Source: an uncultured delta proteobacterium
GTDB lineage: Bacteria; Desulfobacterota; Desulfobacteria; Desulfobacterales; UBA11574
Direction: 5' to 3'
Assembly (NCBI GenBank): GCA_963731025.1
Contig: CAVSVL010000016.1
Location: 60,354-124,353 of the forward strand
Length of the DNA: 64,000 nt
Of this stretch, positions 3,468 through 51,939 are shown one piece after another. The position numbers and the translations under genes were made by a program. Each line of letters begins with the position of its first letter. The stretch's first letter is position 1. A model generated the notes under the pieces. That model was given only the letters and a program-made list of their open reading frames with translations, was not told where the DNA came from and did not search any database.

Positions 3468-3887
3468 TCATCCAATCAATTTCGCTGAAAGATTGATTTT
3501 TGTACCGGCAAATAGTCTTGAAATTGGACATTTCTCCTTGGCTGTTTGAGCATATTGGGCAAATTTATCAGCATCCAGGTCGGGTACCTCTGCTTCACAA
3601 TCCAAGTCAATACTGGTAATCTTCGGGCCGTCATCTTCTCCCAAATGAACTGAAGCCGTTGTCTGTACGCGAGTCGGTGTAAAATTATCCGCACTCATGA
3701 TAGCGGCAAGGTACATTGAAAAGCATCCGGAATGGGCAGCCCCAACAAGCTCTTCAGGATTTGTGCCTTTACCCGTTTCAAAACGCGATGCAAATGTAAA
3801 AGGGCCTTCAACTTCACCATATTTCATTATGCCGTTGCCTTCTTTCAGCGTGCCATTCCATTTGGCGGTTGCTTTACGTATCGTCAT
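3468..3887 (-). CDS. osmC: OsmC-family peroxiredoxin
   Basis: MTIRKATAKWNGTLKEGNG...AAHSGCFSM...; start moved to the ATG at 3887, which is preceded by GGAGGA. Confidence 0.8.
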   Translation of the reverse strand: MTIRKATAKWNGTLKEGNGIMKYGEVEGPFTFASRFETGKGTNPEELVGAAHSGCFSMYLAAIMSADNFTPTRVQTTASVHLGEDDGPKITSIDLDCEAEVPDLDADKFAQYAQTAKEKCPISRLFAGTKINLSAKLIG

Positions 3888-4088
3888 ATTTTCCTCCTGT
3901 TCAGGTAAGGGGTTAAACCGTTTCTGAACCCTAATCTTATTTTGAAGATAGGTTCTAATATAATCACCATTCAAAACATTAGACATAGAATGAAAAAATC
4001 AAGCAAATAAAAAATGGGTGAATTCAACCCCGTCCCTCTTTTAGTCCCCATGTTAAGTATGTCCCCAAAAATCTGTCCGTTGACTTTT

Positions 4089-4913
4089 TTATGGTTTTTC
4101 TTGGGATTTCGAAGTGTTTTTTATATACTCCGACAATATTTTTATGTATTCTTTTCTTACTTCTTCTTTTCCATATTTTCTTTCCAGTCGCCGAATAGTA
4201 AAATGCCCGCGCGCAACTTCCTGGAAATGATCAACAAACAAAAGATTGATAGTCGCGCCGCCAAGAGCGCCGATGACCGGTACACTCTGGACAAATACTT
4301 TTTCAGAAACGACTGTCCCAAAGCGAGACGCAAGCTGGGAGATCAATCTTGCAATAGGCGGAGCGCCACTTTCCGTCAGACCTCTTGCGGCAATATATTT
4401 GGCAGCATCGCTTACGGCTTTTGCCAGGACGGCGCGAACTGTGAAATACCCTGTTTCAGCTCCGTCATCTGTATCGGATTTTCCGCCAAAAGCAAAAACT
4501 TCGAGGCAGGCCAACCTTGATTGAAGTGTTGAAATATCCTCTCCTTCGCTTCGTGCGATATCGGCAATCGAACGTAAAATTATCGATGTCGATATCGGAA
4601 GTTCTATCGCGAGAGCAGGCAATCCAAAGGCGCCACCTAAAGCACCGCTTATACCGCTTGCAATTTTATGTGCAGTTGTTGATGCTGCGTGTTTTAACTC
4701 TTTGTCCATTGTTTTTACGGTGAGGGTCAATAGATTCTTTAAGGTAACCTTTACCGCATCTTGTATGTTTTGAGATGTCTTGACAGGCAGGTTATTAATA
4801 ATTTTTCCAACAGGTTTTTCTATATAGCTCGTAATTTTGGAAATGAAGCTGGGAAATTCGAGACGCACAACTGCTTGTTCAAGATCTTCATAATCTTTTC
4901 CTTCAATAGCCAT
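4089..4913 (-). CDS. EcsC-family protein
   Basis: 274 aa with GISGALGGAFGLPALAIELPISTSIILRSIADIARSEG, typical of the EcsC family. Confidence 0.55.
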   Translation of the reverse strand: MAIEGKDYEDLEQAVVRLEFPSFISKITSYIEKPVGKIINNLPVKTSQNIQDAVKVTLKNLLTLTVKTMDKELKHAASTTAHKIASGISGALGGAFGLPALAIELPISTSIILRSIADIARSEGEDISTLQSRLACLEVFAFGGKSDTDDGAETGYFTVRAVLAKAVSDAAKYIAARGLTESGAPPIARLISQLASRFGTVVSEKVFVQSVPVIGALGGATINLLFVDHFQEVARGHFTIRRLERKYGKEEVRKEYIKILSEYIKNTSKSQEKP

Positions 4914-5057: not shown

Positions 5058-5345
5058 TTATGGTTTTAACTTCAACGTGAGACCCGTAATATCTATTATC
5101 TCCGCCTTATCGCCAACTGTTAATGGAACATCACAAACAGCACTCCATAATTCTCCATTAACCAAAACTTGGCCTTCGGTTTTATTCCATCGTTTAATTT
5201 CGACAACTTTTCCAATCATGCCTGCCACACCGTAATTAGATTTTTTATTTCTGTCCTTAATAAACCAGATTAACGGAAGCACAACATGCTCAATAAGTTC
5301 AAAAGCAATAAAGGCGATTACCAATGCGATAATTACAATTTTCAC
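5058..5345 (-). CDS. NfeD-like membrane protein (C-terminal OB domain)
   Basis: N-terminal TM helix followed by GKVVEIK...GQVLVNGELWSA...GDKAEIIDITGLTLKLKP. Confidence 0.7.
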   Translation of the reverse strand: MKIVIIALVIAFIAFELIEHVVLPLIWFIKDRNKKSNYGVAGMIGKVVEIKRWNKTEGQVLVNGELWSAVCDVPLTVGDKAEIIDITGLTLKLKP

Positions 5346-8080: not shown

Positions 8081-10084
8081 CTATGCTTTCTTTCCATCCA
8101 ACACACTCCGAACTTTATATGCTAAATTGCGTTTATCGACTGGTTTTTCAACATACTCGGCAGCACCTATTTCTTTTGCTTTTTCTGCATCAATCTTATC
8201 GCTAAATCCGGTGCAAATAATGGTAGGCATCTCTGGCCGAATGTCTAGGATTTCTTTTACCAGTTTGTCACCCGTCATTGAGGGCATGGTCATATCAGTA
8301 ATAATCAAATCGAACTGGTCGGGTTTTGAACGAAATAGTTCTAAAGCCTCTATCGAACTCATTTTGGTATCAACTTCATAACCAAGTCGTTCAAGCAGCT
8401 GCCGTGTCATATTAACAATAGATGGTTCATCATCAATAAAAAGTATCTTTTCATTTCCCGTAGGAAGTTTTTCAGTAGGCTCAGATTCTATAACTGCATC
8501 TTTTTCAACTGCAGGGAAGAAGATACTAAAAGTCGTTCCTTTACCCGCCTCACTTTTAACTGTAATTGCACCATTATGTTTTTTGACAATGCCGTGAACA
8601 ACAGACAACCCCATTCCTGTACCTTTTCCCACCTCCTTTGTCGTGAAATAGGGATCAAAGATTCGATCAATAACTTCTTGGGAAATGCCATGTCCTGTAT
8701 CGGTCACCGTTAGATTGACATATCGTCCTGGATGTAAATCAGAATGTTGAGCTGTATTGGCTTCATCAAGTTCTATATTGTTAAGGATTATTTCAATAAT
8801 ACCTCCGTCCGGCATGGCATGATCTGCATTGGTGCAAAGATTTATTAGAATCTGGTTGATTTGTGTTGAATCTGCCAGGATTGTATCAACATCTTTCGAA
8901 ATATTCTGGCGAATTTCAATACTTGTCGGAATTGATGAACGCAGCAACTTGAAAGATTCTTTGACAATAGGGATGATATTTGTTGGTTTTTTCTCCATCT
9001 CGGTCTTTCGTGCGAAACTAAGGAGTTGACGTACAATATCTTTTGCTCGCAGGCTGGCTATTCGGGCCTCTTCCAAATTGAGCCGGGCAGGATTCCAGTC
9101 CGGGATATCATCCATTGCCAATTCGGTATTTCCAAGAATAATTCCGAGAATATTATTGATATCATGGGCTATACCGCCTGCCAGTGTTCCAATCGCTTCC
9201 ATTTTTTGTGATTGTTGGAGCTGGGATTCAAGTTTCTTCTGTTCAGTGATATCTCTAAGATTTATAACGCTGCCGATCGGTTTGCCATTTTGATCCTTAT
9301 AAATGGCTCCGCTTATACTCACAGGAATAATTTCTCCTTTCTGGTTATATCGGTGAGTTTCAATGCCGGAAAACCTTTCCCCTGCCAGCACCTTCTTAAT
9401 CATCATTTTCGTTTCTCGCCATGCTTCTTCAGGCACAAAAACATCCATTTTTTTCCCTATACGTTCCTCCAGAGTCCAGCCGAAAATGCGTGTAAAAGCA
9501 GGATTGAAATAGATTACGTTACCTTCTATGTCGTAGACGACCACTGCGTCGGGATTTGCTTCCAGAACTGTACGATATTTCCCCTCACTCTCCCGCAGTG
9601 CTTCCTCTGCCTGCTTGCGTTTGGTGATGTCTTGGATAACGGCTAAAACATAAACTGTTTTATCTACCACTTTAATTATTGAGGTGGAAATGGAAAGAGG
9701 CTTTTTCTCCCCCTCTTTAGTCGTTATCACCCATTCCTCTGCTATAATATCATCCCCTTCTCGCATCTGAGCCATGCGCTCAGTGGCTTGTTTCTGGATT
9801 CCTGTATCTGGATACATCGTTTGGTACCAACCAAGTTTATTGATCTCCTCCTTGTTATAGCCTGTAATTATCGTCATTCGAGGGTTCCAGTGAGTGAATT
9901 TGACATATGGCTCCTCGGAAATATTATAGCAAATACAAATTCCATCGGCAGCTTTTTCAAGGATGTCCTCTATCATGGAAACATTCTCGCGAAGGGTTTT
10001 TTCCAGCTGTTTTTTCTTGATTGCTTCTTTTTCTAATTTTTTGACTTTTTGTTCCAATTCCTCATATGCTGGTTTTCTGTCCAT
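8081..10084 (-). CDS. PAS-domain hybrid sensor histidine kinase / response regulator
   Basis: Multiple PAS modules, HisKA box GGIAHDINNILG, HATPase (GTGMGLSVV), and a C-terminal receiver (ILFIDDEP...DLIITDMTMP). ATG at 10084 after GGAGGA. Confidence 0.9.
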   Translation of the reverse strand: MDRKPAYEELEQKVKKLEKEAIKKKQLEKTLRENVSMIEDILEKAADGICICYNISEEPYVKFTHWNPRMTIITGYNKEEINKLGWYQTMYPDTGIQKQATERMAQMREGDDIIAEEWVITTKEGEKKPLSISTSIIKVVDKTVYVLAVIQDITKRKQAEEALRESEGKYRTVLEANPDAVVVYDIEGNVIYFNPAFTRIFGWTLEERIGKKMDVFVPEEAWRETKMMIKKVLAGERFSGIETHRYNQKGEIIPVSISGAIYKDQNGKPIGSVINLRDITEQKKLESQLQQSQKMEAIGTLAGGIAHDINNILGIILGNTELAMDDIPDWNPARLNLEEARIASLRAKDIVRQLLSFARKTEMEKKPTNIIPIVKESFKLLRSSIPTSIEIRQNISKDVDTILADSTQINQILINLCTNADHAMPDGGIIEIILNNIELDEANTAQHSDLHPGRYVNLTVTDTGHGISQEVIDRIFDPYFTTKEVGKGTGMGLSVVHGIVKKHNGAITVKSEAGKGTTFSIFFPAVEKDAVIESEPTEKLPTGNEKILFIDDEPSIVNMTRQLLERLGYEVDTKMSSIEALELFRSKPDQFDLIITDMTMPSMTGDKLVKEILDIRPEMPTIICTGFSDKIDAEKAKEIGAAEYVEKPVDKRNLAYKVRSVLDGKKA

Positions 10085-21491: not shown

Positions 21492-21623
21492 TGACGGGCC
21501 GTTTGAAGGTTCACAGGTATTTTGCAATGTTTTTCTCCGGATACGATACTTAGATTGCGGGTTTGTTGCACGCAAAGAAACGAAAGCTTTATTTAACCAC
21601 AGATAAAGGCTGATAATCAAGGA

Positions 21624-22541
21624 TCAAAGGTGACCCCAATGCTTTTTAATGTTATGAACGGTTCTGGAGAATTCTTTTTTAAACTGTTCGTTCTCCGCCT
21701 TTGAAAACTCGTTAAAATTTACAATTTCCAATTCCCTCATCAGACTCAGAAGTTCAAGAATTTGTCTTTCGGCAAGTGTATTGGATTGAGCAATCCTGTC
21801 GGATTTGTTTTTGATATTTTGAATCGACGAAACAGCATCTTTAAATGGGTCGTCGGGATCGCTGAAGCGTTTAAGCAAAATTTCAAAAATTAGCGTAAAA
21901 ACAGCATCGACTCTGTTACTTTTTATCAGTGTGGGGCTGTGTAAAAAAGAGACGTCTTCCTGGACGCCGGCGGAGTCTTTTCCTATATCCATTATTTTTT
22001 CAAACCAGTTAATGGTGTATCTCATATAATCATCCCGGTGCCATGGTCTCTTTTCCCAGATATGAGTCCTTATGACCTTGGTCAGATCGACAATACACGC
22101 CTGGGAGGTATCATAATTATAGGTTCCAATTAACGCTCCGGATTGAAAAATGTCGACTCCGGGATTTTTGGCGTGCTCTGATATTTCTGCGCATAAAATT
22201 CTTAGATTTTGGCCGGGTCTGGCTATCAGAATTTTATAGGATGGCTTTCCCTTGTCTATTCGATGGAGTTCATCCGCGGATTCAGGCGGAGCAACCTTTC
22301 CGGCAATAGATGGCGGTAAAAAAGCGGCATGAAGGTTGGGACTCAGATCAACCGCCTCCAGGGCGGCCATGAAAACAGGAAAGTCGTCATTTCCCAGCGG
22401 CTGAACAGGAACCAATATTCCGGGTTCCATATGCGGTAAAAAGACATTCAGTATTTCCTCAAGCCCTCCTTGCCAGTGGGCACTTCTGGGGTCTTTTTTT
22501 TCTTCGATCCATTGTTTGATTTTATCGTGTATCCGCTCCAT
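21624..22541 (-). CDS. hypothetical protein
   Basis: Start MERIHDKIKQW preceded by AAGGAG. No family recognised. Confidence 0.55.
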   Translation of the reverse strand: MERIHDKIKQWIEEKKDPRSAHWQGGLEEILNVFLPHMEPGILVPVQPLGNDDFPVFMAALEAVDLSPNLHAAFLPPSIAGKVAPPESADELHRIDKGKPSYKILIARPGQNLRILCAEISEHAKNPGVDIFQSGALIGTYNYDTSQACIVDLTKVIRTHIWEKRPWHRDDYMRYTINWFEKIMDIGKDSAGVQEDVSFLHSPTLIKSNRVDAVFTLIFEILLKRFSDPDDPFKDAVSSIQNIKNKSDRIAQSNTLAERQILELLSLMRELEIVNFNEFSKAENEQFKKEFSRTVHNIKKHWGHL

Positions 22542-23358: not shown

Positions 23359-23580
23359 TCATCTGGCTATCGCATTCATATAACACTCCAAATGTTTCTG
23401 CCACTTTGTAACTTTTTCATCTTCATCCATCTTCTCAAAGAAGTCCCGCTTTTCATCTATTTCCATATCTCGAATCTCAGCAAAGGTGCATTTTTTACGT
23501 TTACCCTTGTACGGGCAGTCTTTAAAAACATTTAACAGTTTGTCATCAAGATCTTTAGTGGTCATAAGAAACCGTGTCAC
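23359..23580 (-). CDS. small hypothetical protein
   Basis: 73-aa charged ORF abutting the antiporter stop. Confidence 0.4.
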   Translation of the reverse strand: MTRFLMTTKDLDDKLLNVFKDCPYKGKRKKCTFAEIRDMEIDEKRDFFEKMDEDEKVTKWQKHLECYMNAIAR

Positions 23581-24788
23581 TCCCCTTTAATACCGAGCTT
23601 GAGCATAAGCGGTTTCATGGTGATTCCTTGCACAACTAACGAGAAGAATACACAACCAAACCCTGCCAGCAACAACACCGGACGCCACCTTACCAGTAAA
23701 CCTTCATTGGGTAGATTAAGCAGCAAAGCAATCGGTATCGAGCCCCTCAAACCTCCCCAGAATAGAATGTGGTTCCATCTCTTCGGTCGCTTAGTACCTA
23801 CCTGATTTAGCAACCAGTAGAAACTGTAAGAAACCGCTGCGCGTGCTATCAGCATCGCAGCAATGGCAACAAACACCGTCATCCACATAATATTTGCCGG
23901 CACTTCGCGTAGCTCCAGGCCGATCAAGACAAACAGGAGCGAATTGATCAAAAAACCTATGGATTCAAAAAATATTTCAACCGTATTCGTCGTCTTTTCA
24001 CTCATCGAGAGTCTCCGGCCAAAATTACCTATCATCAATCCGGCCATCACGGTTCCAATTACCCCGGAAAGGTGTATTACTTCCGCCAACCAGAATGACC
24101 CGTAAGCCAAAACAAGACAAAGCGCATTTTCCAGCAGATGATCCTCTATATGACGCATGATCTTAAAAACGATCCAGCCGAGTACTGCCCCCAAGAGTAG
24201 CCCCCCGACGGAAACCTTTACAAATTCATATGCTGCCTGGGCAAATCCAATTTCTTGCCCACTCAGCACGGCCTTGAGCAGGATCGTGAACAACACGACT
24301 CCGGTTGCATCATTAAAGAGCGACTCTCCTTCCACTATTGTCTTTAGATCTTTAGGTGCCCCCACCTCCTTGAACAACGAGAGAACACTCACAGGATCTG
24401 TTGGAGATATCAAGGCACCAAAAAGTATCGCCACCATCATTGAACTGATACCACCCAACCATCCGACAAGTCCTCCCACTAACAGGGTTGATACAATAAC
24501 GCCCGGCACTGCCAAACACACAATCGGCCAAAACTGCTCCAAAAGATCGTTTAGGTTCATGTGAAACGCTCCCTGGAAAAGCAACGGTGGCAAAAAAACA
24601 AAAAATATTAGATGATACCCAAATCCAGTCTTCTCAATTTCCGGGCCAATACCCAGGACACCTATCAACAGTCCTACCAGAGTCAGAAATATCGTATACG
24701 GTAAATGCGTTACCATCTTACTGACAATCGCCACCGCACATGCCAGTAACAACAGCCCGATATATATTCCAACCGCATGCTCGATCAT
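23577..24788 (-). CDS. Na+/H+ antiporter (CPA1/NhaP-type)
   Basis: About 11 TM helices, ...ISPTDPVSV..., ESLFNDATGVV. Start trimmed to MIEHAVGIY. Confidence 0.8.
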   Translation of the reverse strand: MIEHAVGIYIGLLLLACAVAIVSKMVTHLPYTIFLTLVGLLIGVLGIGPEIEKTGFGYHLIFFVFLPPLLFQGAFHMNLNDLLEQFWPIVCLAVPGVIVSTLLVGGLVGWLGGISSMMVAILFGALISPTDPVSVLSLFKEVGAPKDLKTIVEGESLFNDATGVVLFTILLKAVLSGQEIGFAQAAYEFVKVSVGGLLLGAVLGWIVFKIMRHIEDHLLENALCLVLAYGSFWLAEVIHLSGVIGTVMAGLMIGNFGRRLSMSEKTTNTVEIFFESIGFLINSLLFVLIGLELREVPANIMWMTVFVAIAAMLIARAAVSYSFYWLLNQVGTKRPKRWNHILFWGGLRGSIPIALLLNLPNEGLLVRWRPVLLLAGFGCVFFSLVVQGITMKPLMLKLGIKGE

Positions 24789-24960
24789 CTTGATAATCCC
24801 CGCTTTATTTCTTTTCTTCAACGCAAGGCAATAGAGGCAATACGATCTGATGCATCTCGCTATTGCCGCCAGACCGGCATCTCCAGCCACTGCAAAAATC
24901 GATCTTATTACAGATATCGCTTAAAGGCCTTTGTCAAGTCAAGCAAATCTTAATTCTTTC

Positions 24961-25026
24961 GGTAATCGATCCCCGGGCAATCAGATCCATAATGGACAGC
25001 AAAAGAAAGGGGTTGTGAGGTGCCTG
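24961..25026 (-). pseudogene. relic fragment of the HNH 'reader' nuclease gene family (codons ~29-50)
   Basis: Minus strand reads QAPHNPFLLLSIMDLIARG; compare APHKPFLLLSIMDLIAQG at 50440-50500. Confidence 0.6.
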
Positions 25027-25183
25027 CAATCAACAATCCAATGGAGATCCCCAATATTTCCGTCCCCAATATTTCTTTAGATTTTTTACGAAGTGGTTAT
25101 TTTTTTCGCTTGACCATCCATTTAATGGATGTCACCATTTACATAACGACGATAAATCACACCAAGCCTCGTTGAGGATGGAC

Positions 25184-27006: not shown

Positions 27007-27467
27007 CGGACCGGCCAGACCTCGCCGATAGGTGCATACCCCATTATACCTTCCGGTTCAGCATTCTGGATTGCACCGTTCTTCATTTTAACTGTTATGG
27101 ACGAACCGCAATCCAGACAGGGAGCATCAACCTGTATTGTTTTATCTGGAAAAAGCCAGCTGACCGCCAGCGATTCGAATCCTCATTGGGCGAACCACTT
27201 CTGTTGGCCATCGATAGTTATGCGATATTGGGTGGGAAGACTGCTGAACGGTGGAAACGAACAAATGTAGTCGGTTTTTGGGAACAACCAGCCGGGGAAA
27301 CCGGGTGAATAAAGCTCATGCAAGGCTTTTCGCCCTTCCTCTAACGGCACATCCATTTCGGCTGCAATTTCTGTGTAGTGTGGCGCCTGACCTGTTTCCA
27401 TCATGCGTTTCATGATGATTTGAAAAATTTTGTCTAAAGGATCAAGGTTTGACCCCACTCCTCTCAT
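27003..27467 (-). CDS. MerB-like (alkylmercury lyase family) protein, candidate selenoprotein (TGA at 27185-27183)
   Basis: Track ORF ends ...QQKWFAQ at a TGA, and the same frame continues GFESLAVSWLFPDKTIQVDAPCLDCGSSITV...EPEGIMG to the TGA at 27005-27003. FAQ-U-GFESL aligns with MerB YAW-C96-ALDTL. The start codon is uncertain. Confidence 0.55.
27159..27171 (-). promoter_or_regulatory. candidate SECIS-like hairpin
   Basis: On the mRNA, 11 nt after UGA: GCUG-GCGGU-CAGC. Spacing and GGU loop resemble the fdhA hairpin. Confidence 0.4.
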
Positions 27468-28692: not shown

Positions 28693-28819
28693 AAGCTCAG
28701 AACCCTTTTGTCCTTATCAAGAACTGTTACCTGACCCCCTTATTTTATCCGAAATAACTACAACTAATCGGGAGATGATCCTTGCTCCAACTCCAGCCGA
28801 AAATCAAAACGGTATACGG

Positions 28820-29053
28820 CTACACTTTCAAACAGAACATGGTGTGTGTATCTCTAATGCCGCTAATGACTCTTATTCGGTCATATGTCACAGAAAGTAT
28901 ACTGGCGTCATCAGGAGTCTGTACCTCTGCCACGATATCAAAACGCCCGGCAGCCAAATAGACATTTACCACGCCTTCGATTTTCTTGACTTGACCAGCG
29001 ACCTCACGGTCGACACCCGGATTTGACTTAATTAGAATAATTGCCTTTGCCAT
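28820..29053 (-). CDS. Lrp/AsnC ligand-binding-domain-only protein
   Basis: 77 aa, MAKAIILIKSNPG...VYLAAGRFDIVAEV. GGAGG RBS. Confidence 0.65.
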   Translation of the reverse strand: MAKAIILIKSNPGVDREVAGQVKKIEGVVNVYLAAGRFDIVAEVQTPDDASILSVTYDRIRVISGIRDTHTMFCLKV

Positions 29054-29264
29054 GATATACCTCCTTTCAAAGTAAATAACTCATTGTTGCCAGATCGTTA
29101 ACGGTAACTATGCTGCTGATTCAGCTTCAGAGGAAGTTTTCGGTGCTGGGTATGAAAATTCTATACTCGATCAAGAGTCAGATCAGACAATAATTGGATC
29201 GCAAGAATCAGCTTTCAATTCAATTGGATAGATACATCAATGTACTTGTATGGTCAAGAAAAAT

Positions 29265-29374
29265 AGCAGAAAGGGTTTGTGAAGTGCCTGATAGGTGGTG
29301 AGTGCAGGCCAGCGTTTACGGTTTTTATCAGTCCGCAGGCGGGAAAAGCTTTTGAGGTATTGATCAAGAGACAT
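29265..29374 (-). pseudogene. 5' fragment (~36 codons) of the HNH 'reader' nuclease gene with its upstream region
   Basis: Minus strand reads MSLDQYLKSFSRLRTDKNRKRWPALTTYQALHKPFLL, then diverges. About 90% DNA identity to 50478-50587. Confidence 0.7.
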
Positions 29375-29468
29375 TCCATCTCCCGGCTTTTAGAATGCGT
29401 GCTGTGTTTTATATTTCTTCTTGTCGGGCCGAAGCTTTCAGCAAAGGCTGATAATCACTATAAAGGAA

Positions 29469-29498
29469 AATAAACTTAAAATGTTAAGTACGTCCCGC
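29469..29498 (+). repeat. REP-like element, family 1
   Basis: AATAAACTTAAAATGTTAAGTACGTCCCGC. Confidence 0.65.
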
Positions 29499-29515
29499 AA
29501 TTCCCATGTCGGTCT

Positions 29516-31507: not shown

Positions 31508-31705
31508 TTCATTTCCTGAAAAATAGTATTAAAAATCTTATGTGCATCACCGTAGCGCTTCGCGAATCCCTTACATCGAAGGCTGACTTGTCCCGTCGTC
31601 TTGTCGGGTCGTAGCTCGCAGATCGAAGCCGGACTTGTCCTGCCGTAGCGCACAGAGCGAAGCAGGAAGCTCACGGAGCGAAGACTGATAATAAAGGATC
31701 AAGAA

Positions 31706-31737
31706 AATAAATTTAAAATGTTAAGTATGTTCGTCCC
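31706..31737 (+). repeat. REP-like element, family 1
   Basis: AATAAATTTAAAATGTTAAGTATGTTCGTCCC. Confidence 0.6.
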
Positions 31738-31745
31738 TAAAGTCC

Positions 31746-35949: not shown

Positions 35950-36201
35950 ATTACCCTCCTTTTACATTTTTTATCAAAACAGGTTGTTTCGCTTTGTTGG
36001 TTTGTTCAAATGACAGATCCTGTAGCATCAATCGCATATTTTCATCTCTATCAATATTTTCTTATCACTTAATCCTTCTGGCTGAATAATCCCTACCCCC
36101 TGCCCCTTACTCGTTGCTCTTTCATCTTTTCTTCGATTTCTATCCCCTGGCAGCCTCTTTTAATCAAGGATCAAGGTATGTCCCAAGACCTACTTCTCTT
36201 C

Positions 36202-37870: not shown

Positions 37871-37881
37871 CGGAGGAATGC

Positions 37882-37902
37882 GGGACGTACATTAGTTTAT
37901 AA
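37882..37902 (-). repeat. REP family 1, left flank of RAYT-like gene 1
   Basis: GGGACGTACATTAGTTTATAA, inverted relative to 38953-38973. Confidence 0.75.
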
Positions 37903-37907
37903 CTTCA

Positions 37908-49615: not shown

Positions 49616-50587
49616 TCATTTGCGGAATGTATTTCTCCGGTGCCAGTGAAGGTTATCCTGGGCCGGCCAGAAGCTTTCTTGTTCCGGCGTAAAGATGGGT
49701 CGATCGGTCAGTGTGAGAATGTGCCCGGGATAGTTTTGCTCCACCATTATTCGCTTTGAAACCAAAACTTCATATTTTTTGCTAACACTCATGAGCCCTT
49801 TGTCAAAAGACCAGTGGCAGAGCTTACAAAGCGCCATTCCATTGGTGGGCCGGTCGTCAAAGCTGTCTTTCCATGGTTTGACGTGAGCGGCATCGACAAT
49901 GGTGTGGCCCTCGGGCGTGAGCATGCGGATTCCGCACAGGGCACACCGGTGGCTGTAAAGGGTAATAATCGCTTTACGAAATCCCTGGTCCCGGACCTTT
50001 TTCCTCTGTTCAGACTCTTCTTTATCCGGCTCGAAAGAGGCTTTTGTCTCTGCCACTTTCAGCAGTTCTATGCTGTACTGAAAAGCCGCATAGTTTACCA
50101 TCCCTTGTCCTACCAATTTTGATTGAATTTCAGGAGCAAAATACGTTTTTATAAGTACTGCCCTCAACTGCTCCCTGGTTTCCGGGTTGCACAACAACTG
50201 AAACAGTTCATCATCCATTCGGGCACCGGCACAAACCTCACGCAGTTTGGTCATGGAGCTGAAATCGATATTGATTTGATTTTCATATCCCTGGATTTGG
50301 CACCAGATGCCAGAATCCATCGGTCTTCAGTCTGGGAAACGGATAGGCCATGCTCGTTTTTGAACCAAGCGGCATGACACTGTTCCAGTATGTATTGAAT
50401 GTATCAAAAGTTCAAAGGAAGGTTCGATGAAGTTTTGGGTAATCAGTCCCTGGGCGATCAGATCCATAATGGACAGCAGCAGAAAGGGTTTGTGAGGTGC
50501 TTGATAGGTGGTGAGTGCAGACCAGCGTTTACGGTTTTTATCAGTCCGCAGGCGGGAAAAGCTTTTGAGGTATTGTTCAAGAGACAT
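49616..50587 (-). pseudogene. HNH (HNH_2-type) endonuclease with N-terminal modification-reader-like domain, interrupted by one in-frame TGA (50329-50327)
   Basis: Track ORFs 50327-50587 and 49616-50320 share a frame: ...WPIRFPD-TGA-RPMDSGIWCQ... HNH motif HRCALCG...AAHVKPW...NGMALCKLCHWSFDKG. Confidence 0.65.
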
Positions 50588-50682
50588 TCAATCTCCCGGC
50601 TCTTAAAATGCTTGCTGTATTTTATATTTCTTTAATCAAGGATCAAGGTTTTACCACAAGTCACTTCGTTTTTACCTGCAGG

Positions 50683-50744
50683 AAACTTATAAAGTAATGT
50701 ACGTCCCCCATAGTTCCTAAAACTTAATGTTAAGACCGTCCCGC
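50683..50744 (+). repeat. two REP family-1 elements
   Basis: AAACTTATAAAGTAATGTACGTCCCCC ... AAAACTTAATGTTAAGACCGTCCCGC. Confidence 0.7.
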
Positions 50745-50771: not shown

Positions 50772-51668
50772 TCAATCCTTTGCTTTTGGCTCAACATCAC
50801 GGCATTTTCGTTCCAGTTGATGAATAATTCTTGAGATCATTTGGTCAGATAAATTTATGCCGCCTTTTGTTTTGGCGATGGATCGAAAGTTCTTGGGATT
50901 AATAACAGGAATGCCGCCGGAAGCAACTCTTTTTACAAACCATCCCGGCAGGGCAACAACCGGCCGAACCCTGATGGCCTCACCCACTGCTTTTTGCAAC
51001 CATTTTGACAGCCATTCCGCCTGCCTTTTGGCCTGTTCGATGGATTTAACGTCCATACCATTCGAAAATTGAAGACGCGTGCCGTCGTAATTAACCTTAG
51101 CATCTGCCTTTCGATCTTTTGAAGTTGGTTTTGATCGCGCTTTTGTTTCAACAGCAAATACACCCGAAGCGCCGACGACAATGTGATCGATATTGAACTT
51201 CCCTGCGGGAAAATCATGGTAGACACGGTATCCTTCCAGCATGAGCTGATTGAGCTCCTGGCCAACGGCAATTTCACCCTCGTAACCCAGCTGATAAGAC
51301 CGTCGCAGGTTCAATGATTTGACTAAATTAAAAAGAAAATAGGCGATAGAACCTATTCCAGCAATGATGTAAAAGGCAGTTGTAAATGTTGAAAGTTTTG
51401 AATTGCCGAAATGTAATAAAGATATATAAGTGGCATAAAAGAATATCGGCAATGTGATGAGTAAAAGAAGATTTTCAGTTAACCTATCATTGATTTCCAT
51501 AATTTTTCTGTTAAGGGATTCTCCCGGGCTTCTTAAAAAATTGTCGGTAAATGGTGATCGATATCTTTTTATCTGGCGATATTTCCGCAGCAGGTAGAGC
51601 ACTGAAGCAAAGATCGCATAGATTCCAAAAATCAGGATTACTGGGAAATATTTGAGTATCATGTTCAA
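50772..51668 (-). CDS. NERD-domain (nuclease-related) membrane protein
   Basis: 3 N-terminal TM helices. GYEGEIAVGQELNQL..GYRVYHDF...IDHIVVGASGVFAVETK. Confidence 0.75.
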   Translation of the reverse strand: MNMILKYFPVILIFGIYAIFASVLYLLRKYRQIKRYRSPFTDNFLRSPGESLNRKIMEINDRLTENLLLLITLPIFFYATYISLLHFGNSKLSTFTTAFYIIAGIGSIAYFLFNLVKSLNLRRSYQLGYEGEIAVGQELNQLMLEGYRVYHDFPAGKFNIDHIVVGASGVFAVETKARSKPTSKDRKADAKVNYDGTRLQFSNGMDVKSIEQAKRQAEWLSKWLQKAVGEAIRVRPVVALPGWFVKRVASGGIPVINPKNFRSIAKTKGGINLSDQMISRIIHQLERKCRDVEPKAKD

Positions 51669-51691
51669 GGCCTTCTCCTTCTTATATTTTT

Positions 51692-51787
51692 GTGAGGGAC
51701 TTGATAGCTAGTGAATGCAGACCAGCGTTTACGGTTTTTATCAGTTCGCAGGGTGGAAAAGCTTTTGAGGTATTGGGCAAGAGACAT
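51692..51787 (-). pseudogene. 5' fragment (~27 codons) of the HNH 'reader' nuclease gene, fused upstream of the NERD gene
   Basis: MSLAQYLKSFSTLRTDKNRKRWSAFTSYQVPHK, then a stop 2 nt before the NERD ATG. The upstream 5'-UTR homology extends to ~51860. Confidence 0.7.
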
Positions 51788-51913
51788 TCAATCTCCCAGA
51801 TCTTAAAATGCTTGCTGTATTTTATCTTTATTCTTGTCGAGCCGAAGCTTTCAGCAAAGGCTGATAATCAAGGATGAAGGTTTGAACCCAATCACTTCGT
51901 TTTTATCTCAAGA

Positions 51914-51939
51914 CAACTTATAAACTTATGTACGTCCCC
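51914..51939 (+). repeat. REP family 1
   Basis: CAACTTATAAACTTATGTACGTCCCC. Confidence 0.7.

Follow-up and report, generated by a model that had tools for sequence, protein, structure and literature searches.

The question raised by this locus is why the beginning of one gene, together with its leader, occurs several times in the same orientation within an island of unrelated genes. The window, by which we mean the whole stretch of 64,000 nucleotides analysed here, contains remnants of a restriction gene, whose front ends are joined to genes of quite different kinds. In our view these are probably relic 5' stubs of an SBD-HNH gene, which are located at cassette boundaries and act as portable homology for the exchange and loss of cassettes.

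Copies of the gene front end and their parent gene

Three long copies with a common leader and common 5' codons, all of them on the minus strand, are located at 29265-29457 (A), 50489-50670 (B) and 51689-51870 (C), and an internal piece of the same gene, likewise on the minus strand, is located at 24957-25026 (D). A repeat search of the window assigns positions 29276-29457, 50489-50670 and 51689-51870 to one repeat family (D1, 182 nt, 82-87% identity) and pairs 24957-25026 with 50434-50503 in a second one (D14, 87% identity). BLASTN against the whole 4.16-Mb assembly of 43 contigs gave 94% identity between A and B over 155 nt (E 8e-64) and 87% between A and C over 182 nt (E 2e-59), and found no copy of the unit outside the window. 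The genome total is four copies, which are 77-94% identical and lie within 27 kb of one contig. The translations begin with MSL(D/E/A)QYLKSFS.LRTDKNRKRW... (A, MSLDQYLKSFSRLRTDKNRKRWPALTTYQALHKPFL...; C, MSLAQYLKSFSTLRTDKNRKRWSAFTSYQVPHK...) and correspond to the peptide given in the first-pass annotation, whose repeat positions agree with both searches.

B is the front end of a full-length SBD-HNH gene (49616-50587, minus strand), which had been taken for the parent gene. It is a pseudogene. Compared with an intact homologue of 323 aa from another genus (G034; 85-86% identity at the protein and 90% at the DNA level), which served as reference, it carries a -1 frameshift near 50406 and a +1 frameshift near 50292. 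These put codons 61-99 out of frame, which results in an in-frame TGA at codon 87. A selenocysteine reading of this TGA was rejected, as the codon lies inside the segment bounded by the two frameshifts. Residues 1-154 of the intact homologue match the sulfur-binding domain SBDHga1, for which a solved structure exists (8H0L; E 1.6e-12), and residues 215-268 match the Pfam family HNH_2 (PF13391; E 3e-10), whose motif is also readable in the translation of B. From these matches the parent gene is predicted to belong to the SBD-HNH family of phosphorothioate-reading type IV restriction enzymes. The stubs correspond to residues 1 to about 37 of the sulfur-binding domain. No uninterrupted SBD-HNH frame is found in the window, and a search of the assembly revealed no intact SBD-HNH gene elsewhere in the same genome. 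Because only the frameshifted B and the three fragments A, C and D are present, the window is predicted to encode no functional SBD-HNH enzyme.

The homology of stub A (29265-29374, minus strand) breaks off at codon 36.7 and that of stub C (51689-51787, minus strand) at codon 33.0. Stub A is part of an ORF of 45 aa (29237-29374) with a stop 8 codons past the break-point, stub C is part of an ORF of 40 aa, and overall these ORFs end 5-10 codons beyond their break-points. Piece D (24957-25026, minus strand) comprises codons 29-52; its 5' side is cut by REP-like heads (25027-25067) and its 3' side is joined to an antiporter cassette at codon 51.3. The ratio of synonymous to non-synonymous substitutions is 1:3 for A versus B and 3.5:6.5 for C versus B, small counts which have a relaxed look, and the conserved APHKP motif is changed to ALHKP in A and to VPHK in C. 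With truncation, early stops and relaxed substitutions the description of the copies as decaying, non-functional relics holds, and traces of at least four SBD-HNH copies in the window bear out the claim of at least four historical copies of one defence-gene family.

Two other features recur in the long copies. A terminator-like hairpin with a T-run is located antisense to the stub (codons 16-26) and is kept in all three copies on the plus strand (29298-29319, 50511-50532 and 51711-51732). A weak outward-facing promoter-like site, GAGACA-17-TAAAAT, overlaps the start codon of each long copy.

Behind each of A, C and D lies a gene that points in the same direction. The one behind A encodes a protein of 77 aa with an Lrp/AsnC ligand-binding domain (28820-29053, minus strand); a convergent plus-strand gene, which was also considered as the neighbour of A, was rejected. 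In another genus (G023) the block behind A (28784-29265) has a counterpart with 93% identity, which there follows a different stub (codons 30-59) and 315 nt that are absent from the window. C precedes a NERD-domain gene (50772-51668, minus strand) with the junction 8 nt upstream of its RBS; a homologue of this gene in G009 (82% identity) is not accompanied by any stub. Within 51662-51668 the stop codon of the stub C ORF (TGA, 51665-51667) overlaps a TTG, 2 nt before the ATG of the NERD gene, whose RBS is located inside the stub ORF. Such a layout is typical of translational coupling and may be accidental. D is joined to a Na+/H+ exchanger gene (23577-24890, minus strand). Over 1455 nt, D and this antiporter cargo share 96.6% identity with cassettes of G009 and G034, in which the stub is complete from the head on and has its junction at codon 51.3 as in D.

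Stubs and recombination in the bacterial family

DNA of the unit occurs in 31 of 61 related genomes, often in several copies per genome. When 52 genomes of the family were searched with the intact protein, a count from the resulting table gave about 7 intact SBD-HNH genes and 2 copies that are full-length but broken, and a further 3-4 genes run into the end of a contig. The 5' stubs number about 40 and the short 3' stubs, which mostly comprise codons 281-323, about 20, while middle pieces are almost absent. In these relatives, mostly fragmented metagenome bins in which strain mixtures may inflate the stub counts per cell, 5' stubs exceed 3' stubs by about 2:1, an excess that is not predicted by neutral decay alone.

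For a comparison of edges and junctions 60 loci were taken from the relatives. The 5' edge is sharp and located at the GGGGTCAAACC head in nearly all copies. The 3' edges were found at codons 8, 15, 17, 18, 27, 29, 31, 32, 33, 37, 47, 51, 53, 65, 68, 69, 78 and 98, with an overall range of 8-105, and fall into at least 20 junction classes. No common motif was found at the 3' break-points when the junction classes were compared. In about 8 of 24 junction classes a GGGGNC head is present at most 20 nt after the break-point, which points to the insertion of a REP-headed element, and several junction pairs can be explained as deletions from a longer ancestor. An apparent hot spot of break-points at codons 28-30 turned out to be mostly an artefact of a second gene lineage with a diverged N-terminus, which makes BLASTN matches begin there. 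Behind most of the stubs there is a co-directional gene without functional relation to the nuclease; such genes encode, among others, an ATPase_2 protein, a HATPase_c_3 protein, an antiporter and a NERD protein.

Several loci of the relatives contain further rearrangements. At codon 65 of SBD-HNH genes, after TTCAA, four genomes of two diverged lineages contain an insert of about 265 nt at one and the same site (L028 8195-8459 in G021 and L061 846-1106 in G073; the left junction also in L015 of G030 and L020 of G024). It terminates in a GGGGCGTGAAAC-type head, the insert of a relative gave no match against Rfam, and by its sequence it resembles a small insertion element with site specificity for the SBD-HNH gene. 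One contig (L044, G028:C11) contains three "empty frames" (3258, 5220-5345 and 9395-9562), in which either head and hairpin or head and leader nearly abut a remnant of about 18 codons from the 3' end of the SBD-HNH gene. At L013 2069-2300 (G034) and in L021 (G031) an N-terminal fragment, which reads like a type I restriction HsdR, is cut by a doubled family-1 REP directly upstream of an SBD-HNH cassette and would represent the front end of another gene truncated at a REP head.

The evidence for recombination inside the stubs is drawn from the relatives and not from the window copies. The same stub-plus-cargo cassettes recur in different genera, and shared cassettes were compared for G009 and G034, G005 and G034, three genomes of the own genus, and G034 and G031. 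Identity is 97-100% in the cargo and the 3' part of the stub but only 80-93% in the leader and the first 25-37 codons; therefore the crossovers fall within the stub. The best example is an in-frame "mini-gene" of 105-110 aa, in which three parts of the SBD-HNH gene are joined (codons 1-47, 201-243 and 304-323). It is conserved in two species, where a 614-aa HATPase_c_3 gene comes right behind it (L013 5533-5850 in G034; L021 about 3800-4132 in G031). In G034 the intact gene (copy 1) is followed after 3.1 kb by the mini-gene (copy 2), while G031 contains the mini-gene only. In its upstream context, leader and codons 1 to about 38, G031 equals copy 1 of G034 at 24 of 24 consecutive informative sites, and from about codon 43 on it matches copy 2, including the junction and cargo of that copy. 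G031 is a clean recombinant of two direct stub copies, of the kind that homologous recombination is expected to produce, and the intact nuclease gene has been deleted in it together with two cassettes. With reverse polarity, the intact gene and two cassettes would have been inserted in G034. Polymorphisms of the kind TDKNRKRW / TYKDRKKW are shuffled across the junction classes and also among A, B and C.

The exchange of cassettes by way of relic stubs, which we regard as the probable explanation, may be pictured as follows. The original cassette would have consisted of a TIR-like head GGGGTCAAACCTTGATCCTTGATTA, with or without a 32-nt hairpin, a 45-nt leader and the SBD-HNH gene. The body of the nuclease gene would have been lost repeatedly and in three ways, namely by insertion of a REP-headed element, by illegitimate deletion and by homologous recombination between direct stubs. 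Head, leader and the first 8-100 codons would have survived and would now stand before genes that are unrelated and, for the most part, co-directional. In the window the stubs would encode nothing useful and would persist as cassette boundary and portable homology: a crossover in a stub could attach, swap or delete the downstream cassette, including an intact nuclease gene. The scheme builds on the demonstrated anatomy of the copies, on the excess of stubs throughout the family, on the step of divergence inside the stub and on the one clean stub-by-stub recombinant. None of the other genomes sampled has the junction of A or that of C, and by analogy with the relatives A, C and D may have arisen by the same three routes. 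Retention of the leader may have been favoured because it is still able to drive the new downstream gene.

Heads, leaders and alternative origins of the stubs

In the direction of the gene the upstream module begins with a family-1 REP (GGGGACG head), single or doubled. Then come a 25-nt head GGGGTCAAACCTTGATCCTTGATTA, of which copy A has a degenerate version, and a 45-nt leader with a -10-like TAAAAT and the RBS GGGAGA, followed by the ATG and the codons. All modules described here are on the minus strand. In A the leader (29375-29419; RBS GGGAGA, -10-like TATAAAAC) is preceded by a 32-nt hairpin insert (29420-29451, TCAGCCTTTGCTGAAAGCTTCGGCCCGACAAG) and by a segment (29452-29498) that contains the head remnant CCTTTATAGTGATTA (29452-29466) and a CGTC-tagged variant of the family-1 REP (29467-29498). 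The module of C (51788-51939) comprises the leader (51788-51832), the hairpin insert (51833-51864), the head GGGTTCAAACCTTCATCCTTGATTA (51865-51889), a spacer and a family-1 REP (51915-51939). B has a leader with the short head GTGGTAAAACCTTGATCCTTGATTA (50588-50657) and, further upstream, two tandem family-1 REP heads (50683-50744, with the single heads at 50683-50709 and 50719-50744).

The first-pass annotation had described the hairpin insert as a linker, which follows each long copy together with a family-1 REP. That is true for A and C, in which the insert (TCAGCCTTTGCTGAAAGCTTCGGCYCGACAAG) is located between TTGATTA and AAGAA, but it is missing from B. Moreover, A and C are flanked by REPs of different sub-variants, and about 50 nt of head and spacer in C have no counterpart in A. 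The insert is an allelic "long head" and no free element, because it is seen at only one position of the head, in the own genome as well as in 13 further loci of relatives; an independent miniature element was rejected on the same grounds. An expanded version of the linker had been reported at 31590-31700. In the region 31590-31740 (minus strand), upstream of a methyltransferase gene, an A-type REP, the head remnant CTTGATCCTTTATTA and 3-4 tandem linker units terminated by GACAAG are indeed present, but neither HNH leader nor HNH codons are, and we consider it a head-only copy. The generic head GGGGTCAAACCTTGATCC(TTGATTA) is also found alone before unrelated genes, including a truncated MerB-like gene (27432-27456, 36161-36185 and 21614-21640 of the window). 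It is a repeat family in its own right and in this genome restricted to the island.

One alternative gives the leader itself a role: head, leader and short ORF might have been selected and spread as a "mobile promoter" that reaches into the coding sequence. RBS and ATG are retained in almost all stub copies, 5' stubs outnumber 3' stubs, and behind about 28 of 33 stubs a co-directional gene starts 20-280 nt past the junction. Most genes of the island are co-directional anyway, however, which makes the orientation weak evidence. The stop of stub C, which overlaps the start region of the NERD gene, would fit such a role. A scan with a promoter consensus, which overall performed no better than on shuffled controls, found TTGATC-16-TAAAAT at 50646-50619, within B's short head, but no comparable site in A or C. 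In these two copies the hairpin insert splits the -35-like TTGATC from the -10-like hexamer, and at least 7 other copies have the same split and likewise no promoter-like site. The statement that a promoter was copied along with the 5' end thus applies to B and not to A and C. Several of the cargo genes also have a promoter-like sequence and an RBS of their own. As an explanation of the stubs a selected promoter or leader platform seems rather unlikely to us; judged by the hexamers, such a role is possible for the short-head copies and doubtful for A and C.

The surroundings of the stubs allow for a second alternative. Positions 1600-52000 of the window are a mosaic of mostly single-gene blocks (SOD, methyltransferase, ABM, AsnC-like, TPR, TPM, antiporter, NERD and others), each of which is 85-96% identical to its counterparts in other genera, where the blocks occur in different orders. 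Shared cassettes stop 0-30 nt from the stop codon of the cargo, and a REP-type head is often next. Head-like GGGGWC hexamers are found at 9 of 47 block boundaries versus 2.5 ± 1.5 at random positions, with most boundaries being without a head. The window also encodes two Y1 HUH transposases (TIRYT) with DnaA-type tails and contains their cognate inverted repeats. One of these genes (37908-38915, Pfam Y1_Tnp) is located between inverted copies of the family-1 REP (37872-37912 and 38935-38980), and the family-1 REP is the only one of the repeats here for which a cognate transposase was found. Such an arrangement corresponds to the TIRtron described by Di Nocera et al. (2013). An exact-protein look-up of one window gene gave no match. 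The island could be pictured as an integrase-free, integron-like cassette array, in which GGGGWC-headed REP/TIR sites would be cut and joined by the TIRYT enzymes and the SBD-HNH head-plus-stub would be a recurrent cassette front end that serves as RecA-type homology as well. We regard this as unlikely; if it were true, the stubs would mark an undescribed, family-wide cassette-shuffling system. A genuine integron was rejected, with the best match to TIGR02249 in the whole genome reaching 124 bits versus a cut-off of 265. Weaker IntI matches were not found on the contig of the window (C16), and the sites of the island are heads of 25-35 nt, which by eye are not palindromes of the attC type with 55-140 nt.

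The first-pass annotation had raised the alternative of a REP-linked unit that mobilises the 5' end of the gene. A Y1 HUH transposase would take the head or REP as a single end and copy a variable length of the gene in a one-ended or rolling-circle-like manner. The fixed 5' edge at a GGGGWS-type head and the variable 3' edges agree with such a process, as do the two TIRYT genes with their repeats and the head-like hexamers, which are more frequent at cassette boundaries than expected. However, two defined ends are not found on the stub unit: there is one head upstream, and the 3' ends range from codon 8 to 105 without a common cleavage motif. Near-identical dispersed copies, by which REP/TIR miniature elements are recognised, were not found for the stub unit by BLASTN of the assembly, nor are near-identical copies seen in any of the genomes. 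The absence of the unit from the rest of the genome, the occurrence of the head alone before unrelated genes and the junction pairs that are deletions from a longer ancestor also speak against it. We consider mobilisation of this kind quite unlikely, and the idea is not upheld.

The confinement of the unit to the window, which had been proposed as a sign of a simple local duplication, was confirmed by the genome-wide search, and the 94% identity of A and B would agree with a duplication of the 5' end of B within the island. The other copies contradict it. Copies from other genera resemble B as closely as C does (87%), and a tree of the leader and 28 codons places A and B as neighbours and C apart, with the copies of one genome scattered. 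The junction and cargo of D are present at 96.6% identity in two other genomes, the flank of A has its counterpart in G023, A and C have the long-head allele and B the short one, and break-points and flanks differ copy by copy. A local duplication is therefore very improbable.

Stub diversity at codon positions 1, 2 and 3 is 0.19, 0.12 and 0.35, and pN/pS, when pooled, amounts to 0.26 inside junction classes and 0.28 between classes. Many of the stubs are in open frames of 35-139 aa, and selection on a short peptide would be an alternative reading of these values. Because recombination occurs inside the stubs, we attribute the low pN/pS to divergence of the parent genes while functional, combined with recombination; as a test for selection on the stubs themselves it is confounded and uninformative. 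Functional micro-proteins, i.e. N-terminal SBD fragments of 35-90 aa, are as improbable as the local duplication, since the break-points vary and leave no common length or C-terminus, some stubs contain stops or frameshifts, and the window copies have radical changes in the APHKP motif.

Significance and comparison with known systems

If relic stubs indeed serve as portable homology, they document the turnover of a variable accessory and defence island in a sulfate-reducing family, in which a costly restriction gene is gutted repeatedly and its front end survives. The surviving stubs would be crossover points for the loss of neighbouring genes or for their exchange among strains and genera. 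No new molecular machine is revealed by them. In practice, the stubs break metagenome assemblies and are at risk of being mis-annotated as small genes or promoters.

The parent gene resembles the SBD-HNH phosphorothioate-dependent type IV restriction endonucleases (ScoMcrA-like; SBDHga1, PDB 8H0L) in its N-terminal sulfur-binding and C-terminal HNH_2 domains; unlike these enzymes, it is represented in the window by a frameshifted copy and three fragments. With integron cassette arrays the island has in common a long run of mostly co-directional single-gene cassettes, short conserved sites and a reordering across genera. In contrast to such arrays, its genome contains no integrase at the family cut-off, and its short heads take the place of the imperfect palindromes of attC sites. 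TIRtrons, with their TIRYT enzymes and the motif GGGGWSAS of the TIRYT repeats, as well as REPtrons were described by Di Nocera, De Gregorio and Rocco (2013, PMC3733652). The flanking REPs are inverted repeats of the Y1 HUH gene in the window and the heads resemble GGGGWSAS, but the stub unit has neither a TIR pair nor a REP doublet and consists of one head and an arbitrary other end.

Among the ideas already described, "putative mobile promoters" and the orphan modules of polymorphic toxin loci come closest. Putative mobile promoters are stretches of highly similar upstream DNA before non-homologous genes, which are common to several genera (Nijveen, Matus-Garcia and van Passel 2012, PMC3575422); cases that reach into the coding sequence were left out of that screen (PMC3575422). 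The stub DNA is similar to them in its occurrence before non-homologous genes across genera: the identity of A, C and D, which precede AsnC-like, NERD and antiporter genes, is 87-94%, where at least 80% over at least 50 nt is asked for in mobile promoters. It differs from them in being clearly the remnant of a gene, with a promoter activity that is putative and in the hairpin-split copies doubtful. The orphan modules of Rhs and CDI loci are partial gene copies in direct orientation near the main gene, which are substrates of recombination for the swap or deletion of modules. They are 3' pieces without a start, which provide alternative in-frame C-termini. The stubs share with them the direct orientation, the vicinity to the main gene and the homology for swap or deletion; they differ in that here it is the 5' ends with leader and start codon that are kept, and unrelated whole genes instead of alternative domains that follow behind.
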